NCBI GenBank assembly: GCA_937950565.1
Contig: CALFCS010000190.1
Coordinates: forward strand, 1,048 to 65,047
Direction: 5' to 3'
Length of the DNA: 64,000 bases
Source of the DNA: an uncultured Lachnospiraceae bacterium
GTDB lineage: Bacteria > Bacillota > Clostridia > Lachnospirales > Lachnospiraceae
Shown: in pieces, positions 31,213 to 45,300 of the stretch
Position numbering within the stretch: the first letter of the stretch is position 1
How the letters are laid out: every line of letters begins with the position of its first letter
Notes under the pieces: model-generated
Seen by the model: the letters and a program-made list of their open reading frames with translations, nothing else
Database searches by the model: none
Told to the model about the DNA's origin: nothing
Position numbers and translations under genes: made by a program

Positions 31213-31342
31213 AAGATAAGAGCAGAACTCTTTGAGGTGGAAGAATTCGTACGGTCCACACGCCGATGGTATTGACAGGGGAACCCCCCGAGAGATGCAG
31301 GAGAAGCGTACGCCTGCCAAAGAGTTCTAGTTCTTTTATCTT
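31213..31342 (+). ncRNA. Structured-RNA candidate E1 (unclassified)
   Basis: Long closing helix (AAGATAAGAGCAGAACTCTTTG ... CAAAGAGTTCTAGTTCTTTTATCTT). It encloses the core TTTGAGGTGG-hairpin-CCACAC-GGGGAACCCC hairpin-GAGATGCAGGAGAAGCGTACGCCTGCCAAA. E2 on the opposite strand is a paralogue. Confidence 0.5.
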
Positions 31343-31474: not shown

Positions 31475-31572
31475 CCAGATAACTATTTGGCAGGCGTCGC
31501 CTCTCCTGCATCTCTTTTGACCCAAGGGGTGTGTGGTTGCAACGAAATTTACCACCTCAAATAATTATCTGG
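31475..31572 (-). ncRNA. Structured-RNA candidate E2 (paralogue of E1)
   Basis: The minus strand reads CCAGATAATTATTTGAGGTGGTAAATTTCGTTGCAACCACACACCCCTTGGGTCAAAAGAGATGCAGGAGAGGCGACGCCTGCCAAATAGTTATCTGG. The core matches E1, while the outer helix and first inner helix covary. Confidence 0.5.
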
Positions 31573-31614: not shown

Positions 31615-33183
31615 TTATATGTAATCGAACTCATCCGGGCCCTTGAACCAGGAATTGCGTCCCAGGTGAAGCAAAATTGCAAGGACTGCTATAATAAGAT
31701 ATCCGATTGCGTAACCGGAAAGCGGATAGAAACCAAGCGCCGCACTGTGAATAAATCCAAATGCTGCAAGCACATAACCAACCACCGCTGTAAGAGCAAC
31801 CTTATCCAGCCTCTTATCAATGATAAATACGGTCATCGTTCCAAGCAGGATACCAATCAGAATCGCGCCCGCCTTTGTAGCTGCTACACCATTCCACATG
31901 ACACCATTGTCAATAATCATCTGCTTAACATCCGGTGCAAAATCCTGTATTCCGGATGGAAGAACCTCTGTATATATCTCAGCTAAAGCTCCTGCAGTAC
32001 CGGTAACCTGTGTATACAGGTAATCTGCAACGGATGGAACCATTGCAATACCGATTGCCGCATAATACTTTTTCTCACATGCATGGAATGCCTGTGCAAC
32101 CATAACAATTGCGCACCACAGGAATGTAATTGCACATACTGCAGGCGGAACGAGGTTATTCAGGAATGTAAACAACCCAAAAATACCGGATACACCAAGC
32201 ACAATACCGGATACGATGGAATATCCAATACCAGCATTTGATTTCTTAAGTCCTGCATGTCCAAGCCATACGGTATTCGGGATAATACCTCCGAACATAG
32301 CAGAAATCATTGTACAGATACCATCCGCAAACTGTGCCTCACGTACATTATAATTATCGCCTGCCGCATTAGAAGCCTCAACATTATCCATTGTCTCGAT
32401 GAAGTTGTAAATCTCAACAGGAATGATAATGGTAAGGTAAGGTACAACAATTGTAAAACCATTGATCATGTACTGAATACTTGTCACTGGATTCGGGAAA
32501 TAGAATCCCACACCGCTGAAATCAATCGTCGTACGTCCAAGACAAAGTGCGTAGATCACACCGCCGACAATTGCCACAACAAGCGGCGGTATTTTCTTCG
32601 GGAAGAGATATCCTCCGAAAATACCAACGCAGGCAACAAACAGGACCGGAAGTCCGACCATCGGATCTCCCAGAATGTCAAATACACCCTGTGTAGCCAT
32701 CCAGATAAAACCGATTCCGGCTACCGTACCAAGCAACGCCGCTCTTGGGATATGCTTTTTCATCCACGGACCGATAAAACCACCACAGAATTCAACAAAA
32801 CCACCAATGAAGCAGGCTGCCATCGCTGCGGACCACGCAAGCTTTGGATCTTCAAGTGAATAACTCAGCGGCATAACAACACCGTACAAGATAACAAACA
32901 TCGCCGGGGTAGAAACGCCTGACGGAAGCGCTGTAACATCTGCACGCCCCTCTTTTTTTGACAACTTATATCCCATCCATGCATAATATAGACATCCAAG
33001 CATCAGACCGATTGACATAGCAGGTACTACATAACCGAACACAACATCATCCGGCCACCCCAGTACATAAGTCAAGGTAGCAATTACAATAAGATAGTTG
33101 ACAATATTATTTGTAACTGCATAGGAAATGCCTCCAATGTCTCCACGACGGAAAAATGGGACCACTGTCTTTTGTTCTTTCAT
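31615..33183 (-). CDS. Polytopic permease, probably a nucleobase (NCS2/AzgA-like) transporter
   Basis: 522 aa and highly hydrophobic with more than 10 predicted TM segments. It is the last gene of an operon with two adenine deaminase genes. The family assignment comes from context and composition only. Confidence 0.5.
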   Translation of the reverse strand: MKEQKTVVPFFRRGDIGGISYAVTNNIVNYLIVIATLTYVLGWPDDVVFGYVVPAMSIGLMLGCLYYAWMGYKLSKKEGRADVTALPSGVSTPAMFVILYGVVMPLSYSLEDPKLAWSAAMAACFIGGFVEFCGGFIGPWMKKHIPRAALLGTVAGIGFIWMATQGVFDILGDPMVGLPVLFVACVGIFGGYLFPKKIPPLVVAIVGGVIYALCLGRTTIDFSGVGFYFPNPVTSIQYMINGFTIVVPYLTIIIPVEIYNFIETMDNVEASNAAGDNYNVREAQFADGICTMISAMFGGIIPNTVWLGHAGLKKSNAGIGYSIVSGIVLGVSGIFGLFTFLNNLVPPAVCAITFLWCAIVMVAQAFHACEKKYYAAIGIAMVPSVADYLYTQVTGTAGALAEIYTEVLPSGIQDFAPDVKQMIIDNGVMWNGVAATKAGAILIGILLGTMTVFIIDKRLDKVALTAVVGYVLAAFGFIHSAALGFYPLSGYAIGYLIIAVLAILLHLGRNSWFKGPDEFDYI

Positions 33184-37072: not shown

Positions 37073-38548
37073 TCATCTGCTTTTGCGGCCGCCCCCTTTC
37101 AATAACTTCTTTAATATACAAATTGTTTCATCCATGCTGTAAAAATATTTTCTATCCAGGGTTTCAAAATAATCCCGAAGCGCATGCAAAAGCCCTGGTT
37201 CATGAAGCTCCAGAAAAATGCGCTCTCTCCGTATCGTCGGTATCAAAAGATACCCTTCCTGCATGGAACTGTAAAGACAAATGTCTGCAGCAGCAATCGG
37301 ACTATCCGCCCGGAGCATTTGATACTTTCCTGTCTTACACCGGTCTATCAGACGGCGGAGCAGCAACAGCCTGTCATTGTAGTCCAGCGGTCGGTAAACC
37401 GATGCAGGCAGATCAGATATCCTTCCGGACTCGGCAAACCTTTGAATACCCAATTCCGTAAAAATATAGGTTACTTCTGATCTCTCCGATACTTCAGCTG
37501 TCCGTAAAATATATTCAACAGCTCTCTCCTGAATCTGGTCCTGCAATAACAACTCCGGATACAAATACTTTCCCAAAAATTCTGTTGGAATCATAGGCAT
37601 CAGACATGCTTCCGGCTGAAAACTTATCCCTTTGTTTCCCAAATTAATGCTTTCGAAACTTTTTAATTGCTTATCTATTGAATTTAGTTTACACGCCATC
37701 AAAGAAGCATCCTTTTTTAAGGACTCAAACAAGAAATGCAAATGCTCTATCGTCTCCCTTCCCGACAGCAGCATCCCATATTTCCCTTCCATGGAAAATA
37801 CAATTGCATATTCCGATGTCAGAATCATAGAAGACAAAAAATTAAATCTGCTGTTATGAGAAACAATATTATCATAATAACAATAAGGCTGATAAGTACA
37901 TACACTCTGTATAAACATCGGAAGAATATTCTGGAGACAATACAAATTATAATCTCTCTTATCTGAAACAATATCATTTGTATTACTCAGACAAAAAATA
38001 TGTTCAATTTCCAGATTCTTTCTCTTCACTCCCGCATAGAGCAGCATATCCATAATATTATTATCCTCCGGCTGCATCAGCAATTTTATTCTTCCGGCTG
38101 ATTTATCTGCTTCTACATGAAGCACGCTGGAAATCAAATGCTTCAGCTGTCTGTCCTTCATAACAGTTCCCTGGACAGAACCCAACTCCCGCTCATTCAC
38201 TATCACAGCTTCTTCCCAAAGTGTTCCGACTCCCAGCTCCGGAACCGTTACCGGAAAAGACGTCAGGAAATCCTGCACACTTTTTCTTCGATGGTACGCA
38301 TCGTAACCCATAACCGTAATCTGATACGCTTCCATTAACCGTTTTTTCTCCATTGGCTTCAGACGCATATACTCTGAAATTCTCCCAACAATCTCCTCGG
38401 ATGCAGGATTTCGTTTCCCATTAATCAGCTTATACATATTCGAACGGTCAATCCCACAAAACTGCGCAATCGAGTAGGTCCGGATGTCTTTTTCCTTCAT
38501 ATAAAATTCCAGGACAGTAGAAAATGGTGTCATCTTATTGTTCTCCAT
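37073..38548 (-). CDS. XRE-type HTH transcriptional regulator with a large uncharacterised C-terminal domain
   Basis: The N-terminus is LEFYMKEKDIRTYSIAQFCGIDRSNMYKLINGKRNP (HTH_XRE pattern). 491 aa. Confidence 0.65.
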   Translation of the reverse strand: MENNKMTPFSTVLEFYMKEKDIRTYSIAQFCGIDRSNMYKLINGKRNPASEEIVGRISEYMRLKPMEKKRLMEAYQITVMGYDAYHRRKSVQDFLTSFPVTVPELGVGTLWEEAVIVNERELGSVQGTVMKDRQLKHLISSVLHVEADKSAGRIKLLMQPEDNNIMDMLLYAGVKRKNLEIEHIFCLSNTNDIVSDKRDYNLYCLQNILPMFIQSVCTYQPYCYYDNIVSHNSRFNFLSSMILTSEYAIVFSMEGKYGMLLSGRETIEHLHFLFESLKKDASLMACKLNSIDKQLKSFESINLGNKGISFQPEACLMPMIPTEFLGKYLYPELLLQDQIQERAVEYILRTAEVSERSEVTYIFTELGIQRFAESGRISDLPASVYRPLDYNDRLLLLRRLIDRCKTGKYQMLRADSPIAAADICLYSSMQEGYLLIPTIRRERIFLELHEPGLLHALRDYFETLDRKYFYSMDETICILKKLLKGGGRKSR

Positions 38549-38651
38549 ATCTCTTATGTATTAAAATGCAGATGCGCATCCCCTATTGTCCATTTTAACA
38601 ATACTTTTATATTTTGTAAATATACTCCTTGTTCCAAACACTCAAATTATA

Positions 38652-40451
38652 TCAAATCAATGATATGATTCCCGTAGTTCTCAAGCCATCTAACAATGCT
38701 TTGGGATTTGCCTGCTTCTTTGCAGATCTAATATCGGAATATTCTTTATAATTATCTTTTATCATTTCAAATATTTCTTCCACATCACTATTCCGATGAC
38801 TTTCCCAACATTGCACTACTTCCGATACAAATGTTGTAAGATAGTCTTCCAAATGTTCAATATATTGCAACAATGGTATAGTATCATTCAATGCGGAGTG
38901 TGCGATTTCATTTCTTATTCTATATAGACGACCTATCTGACGTTTTACGTTTATATAATGGTTATCTATTCTAGTAAACATTGCTTCCGAATCCGTTGCT
39001 AATTTCCGCATTTCTTTACATCTCTCTAGTAACAAATTATTGACGGCACATTTCGACAATATTTCTTTATACAACTGCTCATCATTTAATGCAGCAATAA
39101 CGTCTTGTACTACCTTTCTCTTGTCTGGATGTTTTAATTGGATACTTTTCGCACTTAAAGTGAAATTGACATTACATCTCAAACAGTCCTCTATGAAATT
39201 TCTAAAGCAGCGGTATATATATTTAGAACATAGTGCAGGCGGTACAGTTTCCAAAACATTACTAATTATATTTTCGTACATATCAGTACGACACAATGAC
39301 TCTAATGCCACCCAAAGATTTATAAATTTATCTTCCTGCGCATAAGAAACCTTTCCTATATTTGCATAACTATATGTCGCACGAAGTTTTGTTTTCAAAA
39401 CTCCATCAGTATTTTTATCAAGCTCTTCTGAACTTCTGAAAATTCTGTTTGCACCTTCTATGTAATCATATGTACTATACAAATCCTTTGACTTTAACAA
39501 ATTATTATATCCATTTGATATGTTAACAGCTATCCAACTAATATCTCGAATATTCCACGCCTCCACTAAATTATAGAAACTTAATTTATTCAAAACATTT
39601 GCAAATCTTGAAATTGCTCTATGAGAAGCTGTATATATATCATACGAAAATTCTCTCAAATCAACATACTCTTGATTATGCTCCACTTTGTTAGCGAAAT
39701 CTGGATATTCATCTATTATACCTTGTCCGCTAATCAATCTTATGCCCATATTTTGAATTTTTTCTTTAACTTTCTCTAATGCATTACTTTTCTTTTGACC
39801 AGGCACATTTCGAGGGCGAATTCGTAACGGTAAAAAAATACGATATTCATCCAAATTCTCATTCAGTAATCTATTTCTAAAATTCACCCAGTTATCCGGG
39901 TTTTCCTTACTTTCATTCAATATACTAACCAGTTTACCCAACGCTTTTGCAGACCAGCCTCGACTAATACAACAGCTAACCAACTGATTTGTCTTTCCGA
40001 TAATTTTAGGTATATCATTATTATCTATGCTTTTTTCAACACTTGAAATCAATTTTTCAAAATAATCTTTTTTCACTATGTTTAAACAATATTCAAGTTG
40101 ATGTATAAGCGTCCTTTGAGCCGCATCACTATCGCATTTCATTCCCAAGTGAGATAATAGCCTTGCTCTAACCGTTGGATACCGCTCCATCAAAACATAA
40201 TCTTTTTTTACTAATAAAGCTGTCTCATTTGCACACTCTTCTATATTTTTATTATTGCTATGGTATCTATTTAAACGTTGATACAATACTTTTTTCAATT
40301 CTTCTAAAGCAGAAATCGTATTCATAATCTTAAATTGATATGTATCCAATGTTTTTTCATCAGTTAATTCAAGCCATACCTGATAAAACAAATAATATTT
40401 TGAATCAACACCCTTTTTATCTAAATCTACGTTATTAAAATTATTTTTCAT
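38652..40451 (-). CDS. 599-aa protein with a C-terminal HEPN-like domain (Rx4H: RLYRIRNEIAHS); candidate abortive-infection RNase
   Basis: RNEIAH at about 38898-38915 matches the HEPN R-x4-6-H signature and is preceded by FINLWVALESL helices. The gene is very AT-rich and lies downstream of an AAA15/21 ATPase gene. Confidence 0.55.
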   Translation of the reverse strand: MKNNFNNVDLDKKGVDSKYYLFYQVWLELTDEKTLDTYQFKIMNTISALEELKKVLYQRLNRYHSNNKNIEECANETALLVKKDYVLMERYPTVRARLLSHLGMKCDSDAAQRTLIHQLEYCLNIVKKDYFEKLISSVEKSIDNNDIPKIIGKTNQLVSCCISRGWSAKALGKLVSILNESKENPDNWVNFRNRLLNENLDEYRIFLPLRIRPRNVPGQKKSNALEKVKEKIQNMGIRLISGQGIIDEYPDFANKVEHNQEYVDLREFSYDIYTASHRAISRFANVLNKLSFYNLVEAWNIRDISWIAVNISNGYNNLLKSKDLYSTYDYIEGANRIFRSSEELDKNTDGVLKTKLRATYSYANIGKVSYAQEDKFINLWVALESLCRTDMYENIISNVLETVPPALCSKYIYRCFRNFIEDCLRCNVNFTLSAKSIQLKHPDKRKVVQDVIAALNDEQLYKEILSKCAVNNLLLERCKEMRKLATDSEAMFTRIDNHYINVKRQIGRLYRIRNEIAHSALNDTIPLLQYIEHLEDYLTTFVSEVVQCWESHRNSDVEEIFEMIKDNYKEYSDIRSAKKQANPKALLDGLRTTGIISLI

Positions 40452-40642
40452 GTGTACCCCTCTTGACTTTCACGCCTGGAAAACCTATAATTATTACATA
40501 TAGATAAGGTCTATATTATTAAGAGACACGTTTAACGACATTGAGCTAAAGCCATTTCGTTTTACCTGTCTCTTTTTTTATTTTATACTTTCTAAATTCA
40601 AAAAACAATCTTTTCTACTAAATATGTTCAATGCCCGGCCAC

Positions 40643-41848
40643 TCACCTCCACTCACTACTCGTGATATTCTGCAAATACGGATCTGCACCATATCTCCCT
40701 TCCATATACTGCTTGTCAAAAGCAGCCGTGCTGTTGACTCTTTCATTATCCTCCCTTCGGATTTCATATAGAGAATAAATCTCACTGCCATGGCTTTCGT
40801 TCAATGCTGCAAACCATATTTCATCTCTACGAAATACTGTATTCTTCATAGTAGCCATATCATGAGATGTAAATAACAACTGTGCCCCATACTTATTAAT
40901 CTTCGGATTCTTAAACAAAGAAATAACATAGCGCAACAACTTCGGATGCAGCTTCGCATCCAGCTCATCGATAATAACCAGTCTCCCTTCCTGCAATGCA
41001 GCCAACAATACCGGAAGGGTAGCGATTAGCTTCTTCGTCCCATCCGACTCATGATCAAACGACAGTTCATATTCTATATCTCCGATTCTGCGCTTCAGAT
41101 ATAACTGTTTTTCTTTTTCATCAAGTCTATAATCATTTATATCTATCCCCATATCATTTAAAAGTAAAAGAATCTGCTTTTTCATTTTCTCATCATCCGA
41201 AACCATAATCTGCATCTCTGCTATAGGATTTGCATAACTACGGACGATGCAGGACTCAAACCATTCTTGCACCTCTGCAATTACAGGAATATTATAATTA
41301 ATTGCAAGGAAAGATAAAAACGGCATCTTCACATTAATGCTGGTATTCACATTTTCCTTCTTCAGAATTGTTCCGAGACTGATTTCTTCATCCCCACGAT
41401 AAAAAATATGAGCAGGTTTCTTTCCTCCGATTTTCTTTCTGTCCAGTGCTTCCGCAGATATTTCATCCTTTAAAACCGCCAGATAATAACGATATTCATA
41501 TTCTCCTGTTCGGAAAAATATCTGAAACTCCGTCGGTCCTTCTGCTGATATCTTATCAAACAAATACGGCTCTGCCACCACTCTCTGCTGCATAATTAAT
41601 GATTTCCGGTTTTTCTCCAAATCATGAATCGGTTTTACTACAGTAGAAATCAGACTTGCCAATGCCAGCAGCAGATTTGATTTCCCGCCTCCGTTAGGAC
41701 CGTACACAGCACTTACAGGTAAAAGATTGCTGCACTTATCCTTCCTAATCAGACTATCAGCAAATTCTGGAATTGATGAAGCTTGAAAATCAAACGTAGT
41801 TTCCTCCCTATAAGACTTAAAGTTCTGAAACGAAAACTGACAAAGCAT
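40643..41848 (-). CDS. AAA15/AAA21-type (ABC-like, COG1106) ATPase
   Basis: FQNFKSYREETTFDF, Walker A GPNGGGKSNLL, Walker B LVIIDELDAKLHP, LLFTSHD and a C-terminal FRRDEIWF...GRYGADP tail. All are typical of defence-associated AAA15 ATPases. Confidence 0.8.
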   Translation of the reverse strand: MLCQFSFQNFKSYREETTFDFQASSIPEFADSLIRKDKCSNLLPVSAVYGPNGGGKSNLLLALASLISTVVKPIHDLEKNRKSLIMQQRVVAEPYLFDKISAEGPTEFQIFFRTGEYEYRYYLAVLKDEISAEALDRKKIGGKKPAHIFYRGDEEISLGTILKKENVNTSINVKMPFLSFLAINYNIPVIAEVQEWFESCIVRSYANPIAEMQIMVSDDEKMKKQILLLLNDMGIDINDYRLDEKEKQLYLKRRIGDIEYELSFDHESDGTKKLIATLPVLLAALQEGRLVIIDELDAKLHPKLLRYVISLFKNPKINKYGAQLLFTSHDMATMKNTVFRRDEIWFAALNESHGSEIYSLYEIRREDNERVNSTAAFDKQYMEGRYGADPYLQNITSSEWR

Positions 41849-42069
41849 TTTGTTCCCCTCCTTTTTCCGACTAAATTCCTGGCTAAATTATATCATTATT
41901 ATTCTCACCTTTCAACTTTTATATTCGATTTCAAAAAAAATATTTTTTATTTTGATTAAAAAAATATAATTTTCTGCATTTAATTCTGTTTATGCCTTTA
42001 AGTGACCTTTAAAAAACTGCCACCTTAGCGAATAAATATTCGCAAAGTGACAGCTTTCACAAACCGACT

Positions 42070-42720
42070 TTATTTTCCCTTATCTTCATAATAATCGCAA
42101 ACTTGTTGTATATAGTAAGCAATGATCCCCATTGCAATTGACGCATTTCTGTAAAGACTGATGGTGTCTACTGTTAAAAACGCTCTTGCTATATTTCTTC
42201 TCCACCATATATTAAATACATAATTTTCTCCATAATTCACATCATATATTATGCCTTTATACAAAATAACCGGGGTGCCATCTACATCCGATGCTTTCTC
42301 TATCGTAAAACCCAGCGGCATTAATACCGGTATCAAACGATTAATGAGTTCCGGATAAGGAATCTGATTTTCAATATAAAATGTGTACTCCCTCAGCATA
42401 GGTGCAAGACCCTGTGCAATTTTATTTTTTATAATCCAGCCAAAACACAGAGCGAAGAAAAACGCAAATATTATGCCCAAGAAATTACTCCCCATTACTA
42501 TAAAAATAATTTCCATTACAATTACCATTACAACATAAATAATATTCCACTTTCTTCCGCCATCTGTAATAGGTTCTGCAGATTGTAAAACCAGCGCCTC
42601 CTTTTTATTTTGTTTCGTACTTTTTTTACCCGTTTCTGCTTTTTCGCTCAGCTCCGCCCCACAGGCCGGACAAATCTTCCATTCAGCCTTTACTTCTTTC
42701 CCACATTTACTGCAAAACAT
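42070..42720 (-). CDS. Zinc-ribbon (CxxC..CxxC) membrane protein
   Basis: MFCSKCGKEVKAEWKICPACGAEL followed by two hydrophobic segments. Confidence 0.6.
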   Translation of the reverse strand: MFCSKCGKEVKAEWKICPACGAELSEKAETGKKSTKQNKKEALVLQSAEPITDGGRKWNIIYVVMVIVMEIIFIVMGSNFLGIIFAFFFALCFGWIIKNKIAQGLAPMLREYTFYIENQIPYPELINRLIPVLMPLGFTIEKASDVDGTPVILYKGIIYDVNYGENYVFNIWWRRNIARAFLTVDTISLYRNASIAMGIIAYYIQQVCDYYEDKGK

Positions 42721-42735
42721 CCTCTCACCCTCTGT

Positions 42736-43443
42736 TTATTCTATTTTTTGTATAAAGGAACCTGCACCGACAACAGCATTCCTTGTTCCACCACTTGTAA
42801 TTTCATAATTACTCATTCCTAACGGTAAAATATCTGCTTTGATAACATCTTCTCTAAAAATATCGGTCAGCGCGCCATTGTACAGAATATAATAATACTG
42901 ATCATTGGCATCGACGGTTTCCAGTTCTGTAAATTTATGTCCATCACCCAGATCTTCTTCCGATACAGTTATAACATATAATTCCGGCAGTTCCATCAAT
43001 TTATCCCCATAACTATCCGCACTTTTTTCCACATGCTTATATTCAATACTCAAATCTATATCGTTCACAATCTGATTATAGTCTGCCGTCGGGAAATAAT
43101 TTTCATGGTCTTTCATGAACTGCTCTGCCTTCTCATTTACTACAAACGGCAGTACATCATTGTCTTCCAGCATCTTATACAAATCCGAAACAGACTCTCC
43201 TGTGCTTGTACCCGCTTCATCGGATGATACTTTCTTTTCAGTATCATCACCCCCTGAAAATATAACAACGAGAATGCCTATCACTATTACTGCGAGAAAC
43301 CAGAACCATATTTTCTTGAAAAAAGGTTTCTTCTTTTTTATTTTATAGCCATCCATTCCTTTTTCTTGTGCGACCTTTTCCCCACAATTCGGACAAACCG
43401 CCCAGTTCCCATCAATTTCCTTTCCACATTTTTTACAAAACAT
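42736..43443 (-). CDS. Zinc-ribbon (CxxC..CxxC) single-TM protein, N-terminal paralogue of the 42070-42720 protein
   Basis: MFCKKCGKEIDGNWAVCPNCGEKV followed by the TM segment IWFWFLAVIVIGILVVIF. Confidence 0.6.
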   Translation of the reverse strand: MFCKKCGKEIDGNWAVCPNCGEKVAQEKGMDGYKIKKKKPFFKKIWFWFLAVIVIGILVVIFSGGDDTEKKVSSDEAGTSTGESVSDLYKMLEDNDVLPFVVNEKAEQFMKDHENYFPTADYNQIVNDIDLSIEYKHVEKSADSYGDKLMELPELYVITVSEEDLGDGHKFTELETVDANDQYYYILYNGALTDIFREDVIKADILPLGMSNYEITSGGTRNAVVGAGSFIQKIE

Positions 43444-43642
43444 TTTTCATCCTCCTCTTTTGATTTTTTATAATAAGCTAATATTGACAATATCAATCAT
43501 TTCCTTTTCTTTCATTCACTGTCAGTGGAAATTTTTTCCAATCATCTTGCACAACATGGCACCCACAGATATAATAAAAACAGTTCCGGCAGGGATGGCG
43601 AATGAAATTTCAACTGCCGGATTTACACAGGAGGATAAACAG

Positions 43643-44080
43643 ATGGCATTAAGCACAGATGATATAGATGAACTTTTTCAAAACGGGGTGACGCCCACAG
43701 AACAGGAAATTGACTTTAATCAAAATGCAGAGCAGGACCGGAATAAAATCTGGCATGATATTAAAGCATCCGGATACAGTATGAACCGGTTTGCTGATGA
43801 ATGTTATCTGCAACATTCTCATTTATATGATTTTCTAAATGGAAAAAAGCAATTAAGCCGGGACAGGCTTTTAGTCGTATTTTTAAATCTTAACTACAGC
43901 TATAGTGATATATGCCGGATGTTCCGCCATTTTCACCAGCCACAGCTTTATCCAAAGGATAAACGGGATTACCTGATTATGAGTTGTATTCAGAAATGTC
44001 TGGCCATTGACGACATTAACCAGGAATTAGAAAGGAGCGGCTTTACCAGCTTATGTCCGGAAAAATCGAACAAACAATAG
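43643..44080 (+). CDS. Small XRE-like HTH protein
   Basis: Start set at the ATG with an AGGAGG RBS 8 nt upstream. HTH-like SGYSMNRFADECYLQHSHLYDFLNGKKQLSRDRLLVVF. Confidence 0.55.
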   Translation: MALSTDDIDELFQNGVTPTEQEIDFNQNAEQDRNKIWHDIKASGYSMNRFADECYLQHSHLYDFLNGKKQLSRDRLLVVFLNLNYSYSDICRMFRHFHQPQLYPKDKRDYLIMSCIQKCLAIDDINQELERSGFTSLCPEKSNKQ

Positions 44081-45300
44081 ACCAATATTTTCTTCCCCGT
44101 GAATTACTTGCAAAAAACAGAAAATCTGATGGGAAGTTCTATCATACCTGGAAAGCATGCCTGAAGAGGGAATACTGGCCGCAGGGGCAGCCTTTTTATG
44201 CAGTTATCAAAGAAATACCGAAGGCTCACCAGGATATTTACCGTACCCTGTCTTCTCTATCACATCCCAATCTGGAGAAAATTTATCATATCATAGAAGA
44301 TGAGGACTGCTGCTGTACTGTTAATGAATATATCATGCCGCCTTCCCGGCTGTTCACAGCCCGGACTACGGATTCATTTTGTCATGATTCTTCTCTTTCG
44401 CTGGAGCAGTTTCTGCATGATTACCAGGGAAGCTTATATGGAAAAGTTCTATCCTTTGAAGAACGGATCCGCCAGGGGCTTATCATTCTCCTGCAGCTTA
44501 CGGAGGCTTTGGAGGTTCTCCATGCACACAGACTAATTCACGGAGATATCCACCCCGGCAACATTCTTTTGACAAATGTCCCGGCCGGATATCAGCTCTC
44601 CCGTACTGTTCCCTGTGATTTTTGTGTGAAGCTTATTGACTTTGATAATACCGCTGCCCCAAAGGAAGCAGACCACATGGTGACCAGACTGATGGGTTCC
44701 AAACCATTTGCCGCGCCGGAGATTCTCGACTTCTCCCACCCGCTGGATAAGTCCGATATTTATTCACTTGGCTGCATTCTCCACTATACAATCTGTGGGG
44801 AATCCCCAAAAAGCCGTGGACTGAATCAACAGCTCCTTCAAAACAAATGGATAAACCGCATCATCCGGCGCTGCACCGCCAGCTACGAAGCAAGATACCG
44901 GAACATCACCGCATTAAAAAAAGACCTTTTACAGGCATTACGGATTCCTTCTACCCCATTTACCAGAGTTTTATATAAAATCCCTGGTTTCCGCAGCCAC
45001 ACCCCGTGGAAAATGGGCGTTGCTTCCTATATTTATTTCTCATTGATTTTAACAGCTACAGTGACTTTTATATCTATCATCCAGGAAGGACTGCCCTTAC
45101 AGGAATGGCAGAAATTAAATCTGTATACCATACTACTTTTTATCATAGAAATTATAATACTGACGGATGCATTTCAGACAGGGAGGCATTCTTCCTCCTA
45201 CCATTACTTTAAAAACTCCCACATGTTTCTGCATATCTGTCTGAAAATAATAGCGGCGATATTTGTTTTCCTTTTATTTGCACTGCTGATATCGCTTTAG
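44053..45300 (+). CDS. Atypical protein-kinase-like protein with C-terminal TM segments
   Basis: Catalytic-loop-like LIHGDIHPGNILL, LIDFDNT and PFAAPE, with AVIKEI for the VAIK Lys. No clear Gly-rich loop is present. It has 3-4 C-terminal hydrophobic segments and overlaps the HTH gene by 28 nt. Confidence 0.6.
   Translation: MSGKIEQTIDQYFLPRELLAKNRKSDGKFYHTWKACLKREYWPQGQPFYAVIKEIPKAHQDIYRTLSSLSHPNLEKIYHIIEDEDCCCTVNEYIMPPSRLFTARTTDSFCHDSSLSLEQFLHDYQGSLYGKVLSFEERIRQGLIILLQLTEALEVLHAHRLIHGDIHPGNILLTNVPAGYQLSRTVPCDFCVKLIDFDNTAAPKEADHMVTRLMGSKPFAAPEILDFSHPLDKSDIYSLGCILHYTICGESPKSRGLNQQLLQNKWINRIIRRCTASYEARYRNITALKKDLLQALRIPSTPFTRVLYKIPGFRSHTPWKMGVASYIYFSLILTATVTFISIIQEGLPLQEWQKLNLYTILLFIIEIIILTDAFQTGRHSSSYHYFKNSHMFLHICLKIIAAIFVFLLFALLISL

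Follow-up and report, generated by a model that had tools for sequence, protein, structure and literature searches.

Within the 64-kb stretch of DNA analysed here (the window), two neighbouring genes encode an ATPase and a larger protein with a HEPN-type motif, and a preliminary description of the sequence proposed that they form a two-gene anti-phage system, either split PrrC-like or an otherwise undescribed ATPase-HEPN module. The question raised by this locus is whether the two genes belong together or are members of two separate defence cassettes that came to lie side by side.

Gene organization and low-GC setting

The two ORFs are as follows:

40643..41848, minus strand: AbiLi-type AAA_21/ABC ATPase, 401 aa, without a RloB/AbiLii partner (PADLOC AbiLi, 9e-78)
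38652..40451, minus strand: ApeA-family defence protein, 599 aa (profile and single-sequence match to Ec2ApeA; AF2 model)

They are read from the same strand, as first described, and the spacer between them, given earlier as 190 bp, measures 191 bp (40452..40642). Both ORFs and every motif attributed to them were recovered in the translations, namely FKSY (residue 10), GPNGGGKSNLL (50), IIDELDAKLHP (292), TSHD (327), FRRDEIWF (339), and GRYGADP (384) in the ATPase, and FINLWVALESL (376–386) and RLYRIRNEIAHS (508–519) in the large protein. The AT-richness reported for the region was confirmed as well, with a GC content of 0.33 at 39–41 kb versus 0.41–0.46 in the neighbouring housekeeping genes, and the stretch of low GC extends from ~38 to 44 kb. 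A search for island boundaries (direct or inverted repeats, tRNA genes, and an integrase) returned only short low-complexity matches and zero tRNA genes, and no terminator-like site was found between the ATPase gene and the large-protein gene.

The 599-aa protein is a divergent ApeA homologue

ApeA is a single-protein HEPN anti-phage system with cryo-EM structures 9HXB-9HXN; the characterised proteins form a decameric or dodecameric ring, are activated by a ligand, and confer protection against phages (bioRxiv 10.64898/2026.01.26.701840, 10.64898/2026.03.20.713152). The family profile of the 599-aa protein matched Ec2ApeA (PDB 9hxd) with E = 5e-35, profile positions 18–578 being aligned with chain residues 17–570, and the single 599-aa sequence matched it with E = 1.7e-11 across residues 22–574, the identity being 22%. 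The profile matches to Ec2, Ec3, Ec1, and Ec4ApeA ranged from 5e-35 to 1.4e-23 and were nearly end to end for the first three, the best stretch in Ec4ApeA being the HEPN half. The PADLOC ApeA model matched 7 of the 30 family members (best 3.9e-12) and the Pfam models HEPN_Apea/ApeA_NTD1 matched none of the 30; for the 599-aa protein itself, no match to the PADLOC or Pfam ApeA models was obtained at E <= 1, and no meaningful match came from single-sequence scans of Pfam, NCBIfam, PADLOC, and PHROGs. An exhaustive profile search collected 2,124 representatives at E <= 1e-3, mostly proteins of ~580–600 aa, whose scores formed a gap-free range, and the Clostridia ApeA-like clade, clustered at 90% identity, comprised no fewer than 111 clusters. 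Judged by this homology, the 599-aa protein is a divergent full-length ApeA homologue and not an undescribed family. The preliminary description had seen in it the HEPN part of a possible PrrC-like or undescribed defence module; the HEPN-type RNase assignment agrees with the alignment to Ec2ApeA, and the protein belongs to the ApeA family.

Domain architecture, catalytic motif, and predicted pocket

The AF2 model of the 599-aa protein (pLDDT 88.8, pTM 0.88) was composed of three domains, in agreement with the domain limits of the Ec2ApeA cryo-EM structure (1–198, 199–309, and 335–583). These domains and the catalytic motif are encoded by the following segments:

39864..40451, minus strand: N-terminal all-helical domain, residues 1–196, with pocket residues Y38, I42, M43, and E76 (model secondary structure; Ec2ApeA counterpart 1–198)
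39477..39854, minus strand: Mid alpha/beta domain, residues ~200–325 (model strands at 201–208, 238–241, 261–269, 305–310, and 316–320; Ec2ApeA counterpart 199–309)
38655..39464, minus strand: split HEPN_ApeA domain, residues ~330–599 (aligned with Ec2ApeA HEPN_ApeA 335–583)
38898..38930, minus strand: catalytic HEPN motif RLYRIRNEIAH, R508–H518 (no variation of R513, N514, and H518 among the 30 family members)

The HEPN domain was helical in the full model (330–599) and reached a pLDDT of 87.9 when modelled by itself. Foldseek searches of the PDB (library up to April 2026), one of the checks suggested in the preliminary description, gave nothing significant for the full 599-aa model (best E 0.14) or for the HEPN domain alone (best E 0.35), and no ApeA entries were among the results; the HEPN fold thus rests on sequence homology to the solved ApeA structures. 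The ApeA authors needed GT-align to detect HepT (bioRxiv 10.64898/2026.01.26.701840, 10.64898/2026.03.20.713152).

The RNxxxH signature of HEPN proteins pointed out earlier was borne out: R513, N514, and H518 were invariant in all 30 members of the family alignment, which reaches down to 32% identity, and align with Ec2ApeA R502, N503, and H507. R508, L509, Y510, R511, and I516 of the same motif, as well as N378, W380, and A382–L386, were invariant across these members, and such invariance at this depth places the motifs of the large protein beyond chance. In the characterised proteins, R502A in Ec2ApeA and R521A in Ec1ApeA destroy defence, and the oligomer interface has been termed less conserved (bioRxiv 10.64898/2026.01.26.701840, 10.64898/2026.03.20.713152); the counterparts of the published Ec2ApeA oligomer-interface and regulatory-loop residues were not conserved in the 599-aa protein.

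The core of the predicted pocket (Y38, E76, Y411, H498, Q505, H533, and Y537) was conserved in 29–30 of the 30 members, E76 being the counterpart of the guanine-reading E74. Five ligand-contact residues were replaced relative to Ec2ApeA (S40 by K41, R148 by I151, R152 by N155, Y469 by E480, and R490 by N501), and the pocket differs from both the Ec2 and the Ec1 type. Ec2ApeA is activated by a 5'-phosphorylated deoxydinucleotide (bioRxiv 10.64898/2026.01.26.701840, 10.64898/2026.03.20.713152). Together, the conserved core including E76 and the five changed contacts suggest that the activator of the ApeA-like protein is probably nucleotide-like and need not be this deoxydinucleotide.

A predicted structured leader RNA upstream of the ApeA-like gene

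Two potential RNA structures were observed upstream of the ApeA-like gene:

40518..40577, minus strand: conserved structured leader hairpin, a 5' UTR element or upstream ncRNA (covariance model)
40498..40516, minus strand: second small hairpin/palindrome, ATATAGA-N5-TCTATAT (single-sequence fold; stem conserved and loop variable by eye in alignment A2)

The leader hairpin scored 77.3 bits with the covariance model. Every sense-strand match in 1.16 Mb was located upstream of an ApeA-like gene, including matches in non-seed members at 31–36% protein identity, and within the clade the hairpin lies about 70–190 nt upstream of the gene. Compensatory changes were found in 12 of the 20 pairs, 91% of the hairpin cells were paired versus 33–48% in slid controls, one G-U pair was invariant, and the fold z-score was -3.0. 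Rfam gave no match to the leader at the gathering threshold or at E <= 1. By eye, a promoter-like TTGnnn-17-TAAAAT was seen upstream of the hairpin and an invariant ATTATA downstream of it, ahead of the start codon. A structured leader of this kind, present in part of the Clostridia clade, is unreported for ApeA.

The hairpin RNA might be a second component of the ApeA-like RNase, acting as an AbiF-like antitoxin inhibitor or as a cis-regulator (autoregulatory switch), an idea in keeping with its moving with the gene, its strong covariation, and the promoter-like and ATTATA sequences on its two sides. AbiF, itself a HEPN protein neutralised by an upstream ncRNA, offers a precedent, and in AbiF/AbiD (type III toxin-antitoxin) the HEPN RNase gene is likewise preceded by a mobile conserved RNA element; this likeness concerns the gene arrangement, and the leader in the window, unlike theirs, is a single hairpin with no repeat array and possibly a plain 5' UTR. 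However, of the ApeA-like contexts searched, only about a third yielded the hairpin, E. coli ApeA proteins function from bare plasmid ORFs, and the element could equally be a DNA operator or a 5' stem-loop that stabilises the mRNA, so that a role of the hairpin as partner of the RNase appears rather unlikely.

The AbiLi-type ATPase and its usual partner

The 401-aa protein matched PADLOC AbiLi (PDLC02335) with 9e-78 (259.6 bits) and, more weakly, AriA with 4.4e-31; in Pfam, AAA_21 (6.6e-30) and AAA_15 were matched. Its earlier assignment to the defence-type ATPases is therefore well founded. PADLOC, which had been suggested for the region, named this protein and gave no match for its 599-aa neighbour. 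AbiL (AbiLi + AbiLii), Campylobacter RloAB, and PARIS (AriA + AriB) are pairs of an ABC ATPase with a TOPRIM/OLD nuclease; the ATPase of the window resembles those of AbiL and PARIS, whereas the nuclease gene is missing here. In 82 of the 87 loci of its relatives, a RloB (TOPRIM-type) gene lies directly 3' of the ATPase gene, usually with a 4-bp overlap, and the relatives with a directly adjoining RloB-domain gene shared 66–90% identity. No RloB was found anywhere in the 64-kb window (tblastn, best E 0.72), nor a RloB remnant by blastn of the window against RloB-linked loci, nor a match to AriB among the neighbouring genes. With the RloB nuclease gene absent, the AbiL-type system in the window is incomplete.

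Loci of relatives lacking RloB were inspected for an alternative effector. The IS66 transposase in one of them (L151) represents a disruption rather than a partner; a second (L088) held two small ORFs with no Pfam match, and the sequence of a third (L150) was short. The ATPase of the window retained intact motifs, with one conservative private substitution and no decay, and is preceded by a promoter-like site, which falls in a region of ~100 bp conserved with the RloB-linked loci:

41887..41915, minus strand: promoter-like site for the ATPase gene, TTGAAA-17-TATAAT with TG extension (11 of 12 consensus positions)

Two abutting cassettes, probably not one system

The boundary between the two genes was located by comparison with loci in which each occurs in other surroundings:

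40626..40642, unstranded: junction of the two cassettes (site of the RloB gene start in relatives)

Homology of the ApeA-like cassette in other contexts extends to 40592–40625 and that of the ATPase module stops at 40639–40664; the two cassettes thus adjoin within about 20 bp, at the expected RloB start, and ~175 bp of the 191-bp spacer belongs to the ApeA-like gene as its leader.

Of 52 species-representative loci, not one had an ATPase homologue at a distance of up to 7 kb from the ApeA-like gene, and all 87 loci of ATPase relatives were free of ApeA-like genes. Further contexts of six family members, the three closest relatives included, held no ATPase homologue except in one lineage, in which a separate complete AAA_21+RloB pair lies 1.2 kb downstream of the ApeA-like gene. 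The relatives at 82%, 76%, and 74% identity were solo in unrelated gene contexts, and the ApeA-like gene had no conserved protein partner, no neighbour family being found in more than 4 of the 52 independent contexts. A 326-aa gene upstream of one family member (P0098), considered as a cryptic ATPase, was rejected, being unlike the ATPase in sequence and without a Pfam match. The arrangement of the ATPase with the ApeA-like gene was observed in one lineage only, with identical flanking genes, in at least four gut metagenome samples.

Co-occurrence of the two families had been named in the preliminary description as a check on its proposal; the comparison was negative (0/52 and 0/87 loci) and speaks against a two-gene ATPase-HEPN system, whether split PrrC-like or undescribed. 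As its distribution indicates, the ApeA-like protein is a stand-alone single-gene system, and the ATPase is most likely what remains of an AbiL/RloAB-type pair, functionally unconnected with it. With the one a probable leftover of another pair and ApeA working as a single protein, the locus is probably two abutting independent defence cassettes, neighbours and not a new two-gene system. As a whole, it is probably explained by a solo ApeA-type RNase beside an orphaned AbiLi-type ATPase, the two cassettes lying head to tail in a small, low-GC variable region in the genome of a gut member of the Clostridia, probably of the Lachnospiraceae.

Alternatively, the effector might have been exchanged, the AbiLi-type ATPase having lost its TOPRIM partner and now sensing for, or gating, the ApeA-like HEPN RNase. 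Such an exchange would be consistent with the shared strand, a 191-bp spacer free of terminator-like sites, the exact RloB position taken by the ApeA-like cassette, the intact ATPase with its strong predicted promoter, and an arrangement stable in at least four metagenome samples; moreover, ABC ATPases pair with varied effectors and ABC ATPase-HEPN fusions exist. It is, however, made very improbable by a pairing confined to one lineage with the same flanking genes, the zero co-occurrence in 52 + 87 other loci, the solo state of the ApeA-like proteins at 74–82% identity, a gene that came with its own leader, and the working of characterised ApeA proteins without a partner. Very improbable too is an AbiL-type system that still functions with a TOPRIM/RloB partner encoded elsewhere in the genome, which the intact, apparently constrained ATPase and a RloB search covering the 64-kb window would allow, but which conflicts with the position of RloB directly 3' in 82/87 loci, no split arrangement having been seen.

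Against the reading of the large protein as ApeA speak its low identity to Ec2ApeA, the missing matches to the family models and in Foldseek, and the unconserved counterparts of the interface and regulatory-loop residues. The lack of decay in the ATPase, its promoter, the missing terminator-like site, and the occurrence in several gut samples also run counter to the orphan reading as such, and the ATPase may still be in use, even together with the ApeA-like protein.

Proposed mode of action and relation to known systems

Characterised ApeA homologues cut tRNA anticodon loops, whereby translation and phage growth are halted (bioRxiv 10.64898/2026.01.26.701840, 10.64898/2026.03.20.713152). Under the reading as a solo ApeA-type RNase and by analogy with Ec1ApeA and Ec2ApeA, the ApeA-like protein would dimerise via its split HEPN domain, and the dimers would probably assemble into a ring. 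It would be inactive until an infection-derived ligand fills the pocket, which would lie between the N-terminal domain and the HEPN domain, and would then cut RNA with R513/N514/H518; the RNA target and an abortive outcome are likewise those that we infer from the homologues. The ATPase would be a recently orphaned remnant, presumably no longer functional, with the place of RloB taken by the ApeA-like cassette.

With ApeA, the protein shares the length of ~600 aa, the order of N-terminal, Mid, and split HEPN domains, full-length homology, the catalytic R/N/H, the residues Y, E, Y, H, Q, H, and Y of the predicted pocket core, and a stand-alone gene in variable, defence-island-like contexts; unlike known ApeA, its Clostridia clade is missed by Pfam and the protein itself by PADLOC as well. 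PrrC and RloC are similar in that here an ABC-type ATPase adjoins a HEPN RNase and that ApeA, as PrrC, cleaves tRNA anticodon loops. They differ in that the window shows neither fusion nor conserved linkage, that its HEPN domain is an ApeA-type one and comes with a predicted sensor pocket of its own, and that its ATPase falls in the AbiLi/RloA clade, the partners of which are TOPRIM nucleases.

Implications

Adjacency in a defence island does not make a system, and in this locus it was the co-occurrence test that separated a solo ApeA from a broken AbiL-type pair. The ATPase, seen soon after its orphaning, would illustrate how one cassette gives way to another in defence islands, and the leader hairpin is a candidate regulatory element for a toxic RNase. 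The ApeA proteins characterised to date are E. coli homologues, one Pa1ApeA, and one from an actinomycete (bioRxiv 10.64898/2026.01.26.701840, 10.64898/2026.03.20.713152). The range of ApeA is here extended to gut Clostridia, and since the Pfam and PADLOC models largely miss this clade, ApeA would be under-counted in defence inventories of gut Firmicutes. With its changed ligand contacts and its retained catalytic site and predicted pocket core, the clade may serve as a natural panel for the activator specificity of ApeA.

Organization of the locus

Two ORFs were read in a low-GC stretch spanning approximately 38-44 kb of the window, with a gap of 191 bp between them:

40643..41848, minus strand: ATPase ORF, 401 aa
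38652..40451, minus strand: ApeA-like ORF, 599 aa

All motifs cited in the preliminary description, which had proposed the pair as a split PrrC-like or otherwise undescribed two-gene defence module, were found in the two translations, and the region was indeed AT-rich (GC of 0.33 at 39-41 kb, compared with about 0.41-0.46 for the adenine deaminase and aminotransferase genes on its flanks).

Immediately upstream of the ATPase gene were two tandem genes (42070-42720 and 42736-43443, both minus strand), also present in L161, L162 and L164 of the same lineage, whose products of 216 and 235 aa possessed an N-terminal zinc-ribbon and, by eye, apparently hydrophobic, membrane-like stretches. In the same low-GC stretch, a gene for a 206-aa protein without a family match (43460-44080, plus strand) overlapped a 415-aa Ser/Thr protein kinase gene (44053-45300, plus strand); the kinase gave generic PADLOC kinase-model matches (mad6, 6.5e-25; PD-T4-6), its C-terminal sequence was hydrophobic and membrane-like by eye, and the pair could form a further defence or signalling module. 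A 491-aa protein encoded 103 bp downstream of the ApeA-like gene (37073-38548, minus strand) and kept in the same lineage had an N-terminal Cro/C1-type HTH (HTH_26, 1.6e-4) as its sole family match; its gene was not found within 3 kb of ApeA-like genes outside the window lineage by neighbour clustering of 52 contexts. The skipping-rope RNA of Rfam (RF02924) occurred twice, in opposite orientations (31227-31325, plus strand, 51 bits; 31482-31565, minus strand, 65.8 bits), just past the 3' end of a 522-aa gene (31615-33183), near tandem adenine deaminase genes.

The large protein is a divergent ApeA

The 599-aa protein alone matched nothing in Pfam, PADLOC, NCBIfam or PHROGs. Its homologues formed 111 clusters at 90% identity, mostly full-length at about 600 aa with some truncated fragments; all were unnamed, and precomputed Pfam domains occurred on just two, unrelated in both. 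Among species-representative genomes the family was almost confined to Clostridia (Lachnospiraceae, Oscillospiraceae and relatives), with a few Bacilli. An alignment of 30 members, with identity down to 32%, contained four segments with invariant residues, NxWxALESL (378-386), RNFxEDCxRC (417-426), RLYRxRNxIxH (508-518) and HLxxYL (533-538), and invariant N-terminal residues including Q24, W26, E28, T34, D36, Q39, E76 and G165-W166-S167. The invariant residues at 508-518 show that the HEPN motif noticed earlier is real and under strong constraint.

When the profile of this alignment was searched against all PDB sequences, the matches were "bacterial antiviral defense protein ApeA" of E. coli: Ec2ApeA (9hxd_A, 5e-35), Ec3ApeA (9hxj_A, 4.5e-33), Ec1ApeA (9hxn_A, 1.2e-23) and Ec4ApeA (9hxm_A, 1.4e-23). 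Ec2ApeA aligned end to end (chain residues 17-570 with profile positions 18-578), and the single window sequence matched it at 1.7e-11 over residues 22-574. The PADLOC ApeA model matched 7 of the 30 members (best 3.9e-12) and missed the window protein, while the Pfam ApeA models matched none of the 30. When 1.84 billion representatives were searched exhaustively with the profile, 2,124 proteins were returned at E <= 1e-3 (280 at <= 1e-30), mostly full-length at about 580-600 aa, with scores declining without a gap; thus, the window clade merges gradually into the rest of the ApeA family. The large protein belongs to the known single-gene ApeA system, as a divergent member with poor annotation.

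A 2013 HEPN survey (PMC3710099) had already included the family "ApeA/BMEI1217". ApeA is a single-protein defence system, in which HEPN-mediated dimers assemble into decameric or dodecameric rings that cleave tRNA anticodon loops, acting abortively against DNA phages, upon binding of a ligand in a conserved pocket at the interface of the N-terminal and HEPN domains (bioRxiv 10.64898/2026.01.26.701840; 10.64898/2026.03.20.713152). The ligand of Ec2ApeA is a 5'-phosphorylated deoxydinucleotide with G last; Ec1ApeA, whose pocket differs and whose activator is not known, can also cleave ssRNA phage genomes, the cell not being killed (same two sources). In the Ec2ApeA monomer, residues 1-198 form the N-terminal domain, 199-309 the Mid domain and 335-583 the split HEPN domain, and defence is abolished by R502A in Ec2ApeA and R521A in Ec1ApeA (bioRxiv 10.64898/2026.01.26.701840).

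Predicted structure and ligand pocket

In the AF2 model of the window protein, which was confident (pLDDT 88.8, pTM 0.88), residues 1-196 formed a helical N-terminal domain, 200-325 an alpha/beta middle domain and 330-599 a C-terminal domain that was again helical, matching the Ec2ApeA cryo-EM domain boundaries. Since Foldseek against PDB (library to April 2026, no ApeA entries returned) gave nothing significant, whether the query was the whole model or just its C-terminal domain, the predicted HEPN fold of the C-terminal domain rests on homology to the solved ApeA structures; weak, scattered matches of family members to Csx1, CARF-HEPN and Swt1-HEPN models were consistent with it. For residue mapping, Ec2ApeA 17-570, rebuilt from the profile-search alignment, was added to the family alignment; it was 22% identical to the window protein, and HMMER and MAFFT alignments agreed at the mapped catalytic and pocket positions.

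Ec2ApeA residues and their equivalents in the window protein and in the 30-member family

Catalytic: R502, window R513, 30/30
Catalytic: N503, window N514, 30/30
Catalytic: H507, window H518, 30/30
Pocket core: Y37, window Y38, 29/30
Pocket core, guanine-reading: E74, window E76, 30/30
Pocket core: Y401, window Y411, 30/30
Pocket core: H487, window H498, 30/30
Pocket core: Q494, window Q505, 29/30
Pocket core: H521, window H533, 30/30
Pocket core: Y525, window Y537, 30/30
Ligand contact, changed: S40, window K41, family R/K (as in Ec1ApeA)
Ligand contact, changed: R148, window I151, family variable
Ligand contact, changed: R152, window N155, family mostly N
Ligand contact, changed: Y469, window E480, family variable
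Ligand contact, changed: R490, window N501, family N/R/T/K

With full-length homology to ApeA and an invariant catalytic R/N/H set, the HEPN call was borne out. Judged from these residues, the pocket appears to be a third flavour, and the activating ligand may therefore differ from those of both characterised ApeA types. Equivalents of the published oligomer-interface and regulatory-loop residues were not conserved; the interface is described by its authors as poorly conserved (bioRxiv 10.64898/2026.01.26.701840).

The ATPase lacks its usual neighbouring partner

The ATPase matched AAA_21 (6.6e-30) and AAA_15 in Pfam, and its top PADLOC match by far was AbiLi (PDLC02335, 9e-78, 259.6 bits), followed by AriA (4.4e-31) and, weakly, PtuA. 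Its family, made up of proteins of about 402 aa, is very large and tightly conserved (more than 7,000 matches at E <= 1e-20, the best 120 all at least 77% identical). A match to phrog_5836, of unknown function (7.3e-55), indicates that phages or prophages, too, carry relatives of this ATPase.

In relatives at 87% and 78% identity, the ATPase gene was followed by a gene for RloB (PF13707, about 222 aa), overlapping it by 4 bp in most places shown. Among 87 loci of relatives (66-89% identity), RloB was directly downstream in 82, two ran off the contig edge and three lacked RloB, one of these having an IS66 transposase in its position. Systems of the AbiL/RloAB/PARIS architecture combine an ABC ATPase with a TOPRIM/OLD-type nuclease (PMC13064643), whereas the locus studied has the ATPase and RloB was not found anywhere within the 64-kb window. 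The ATPase is most likely an orphan, the sensor half of a pair of the AbiL/RloAB type; it carried one private substitution at near-invariant positions, the conservative F95Y, and otherwise departed from its relatives only across the last 7 or so residues.

The two genes do not form a conserved pair

The two-gene system was contradicted from both sides, as no ATPase relative (phmmer, E <= 1e-3) lay within 7 kb of the ApeA-like gene in any of 52 species-representative loci, and the ApeA-like gene was absent from all 87 loci of ATPase relatives. When all ORFs up to 3 kb from the ApeA-like gene were clustered (70 loci, 52 independent contexts), no neighbour family recurred in more than 4 contexts. 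Co-occurrence was not seen beyond one lineage: the arrangement recurred only in contigs from several human-gut samples with identical flanking genes, which therefore represent one lineage rather than independent occurrences.

Nor was the ATPase seen beside the closest relatives, whose neighbours varied: P0001 (82% identity) adjoined an AbiJ-NTD protein, an integrase and PemK; P0004 (76%) an HTH_38 gene, BrxA and BrxB being at a distance of 3 kb; and P0005 (74%) VanZ and radical-SAM genes. P0046 and P0091 were solo, and P0098 had an unrelated 326-aa neighbour. The closest relative (82%; L073, 168-4755) was on an apparent integrative element with a PemK toxin, three HTH_17 proteins, a tyrosine integrase and a 426-aa AbiJ_NTD3/NTD4 protein, a context consistent with horizontal movement of the ApeA-like cassette. 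In the P0004 lineage, with an ApeA-like product of 592 rather than 599 aa, a 437-aa HTH_38 gene, presumably an IS30-type transposase, separated the conserved leader from the ApeA-like CDS (L065, 5125-7000; L067, L068), which may be insertional inactivation or a promoter swap; L066 had the same gene order, the leader fragment not being recovered.

In the P0098 lineage, a complete separate AAA_21 (452 aa) and RloB pair lay 1.2 kb downstream in 5 of 6 places shown (9004-11054 in L001, L002 and L004-L006; absent in L003). Thus, ApeA-like genes can be found in the same defence islands as AbiL-type pairs, which shows a route to the adjacency in the window.

The limits of DNA homology located the junction. 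Homology to RloB-linked loci began about 100 bp upstream of the ATPase gene, taking in a strong promoter-like site (41915..41887), and ended where the ATPase gene does at its 3' side (40639-40664), the point at which RloB would be expected to start. Homology to ApeA-like loci in unrelated contexts covered 38646..40625 (L073, 81.5% identity) and 38654..40592 (L070-72), taking in the gene together with some 140-175 bp of the 191-bp "spacer". The two cassettes therefore meet within about 20 bp, and the genes would be neighbours because the ApeA-like cassette fills the slot of the lost RloB gene. That the ATPase has since been co-opted to work with the ApeA-like protein would suit an intact ATPase with a promoter and the absence of a terminator between the genes, but no comparative evidence supports it.

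A conserved leader upstream of the ApeA-like gene

The segment travelling with the ApeA-like gene contained two hairpins:

40518-40577, minus strand: imperfect hairpin of about 55 nt
40498-40516, minus strand: second, smaller hairpin

A covariance model built from nine sequences, run over 1.16 Mb of loci, placed the larger hairpin nowhere but upstream of ApeA-like genes, on the gene's strand and at 70-190 nt from the start codon (L007, L009, L011-L014, L028, L032, L035, L036, L056, L063, L065, L067, L068 and L070-L073), among them members at 31-36% protein identity that the seed alignment had not contained; none occurred in about 30 ATPase/RloB control loci. In an alignment fitted to the model, 91% of cells were paired versus 33-48% with slid partners, compensatory double changes affected 12 of 20 pairs versus 3-6 in slid controls, and the covariation score was 0.41 versus 0.06-0.08. 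One invariant G-U pair favours a sense-strand RNA, and Rfam gave no match for the element. The element shows that the ApeA-like gene moves together with an upstream control region of its own. The element may be a 5' UTR regulator or an AbiF-type upstream ncRNA; AbiF is likewise a HEPN toxin, and an ncRNA encoded upstream neutralises it, a precedent by which the ApeA-like protein might have an RNA partner.

The preliminary description was right in what it observed, in its HEPN assignment and in the link to defence, and wrong on the pairing; modest extra interest attaches to the altered ligand pocket and to the leader RNA with its conserved hairpin.
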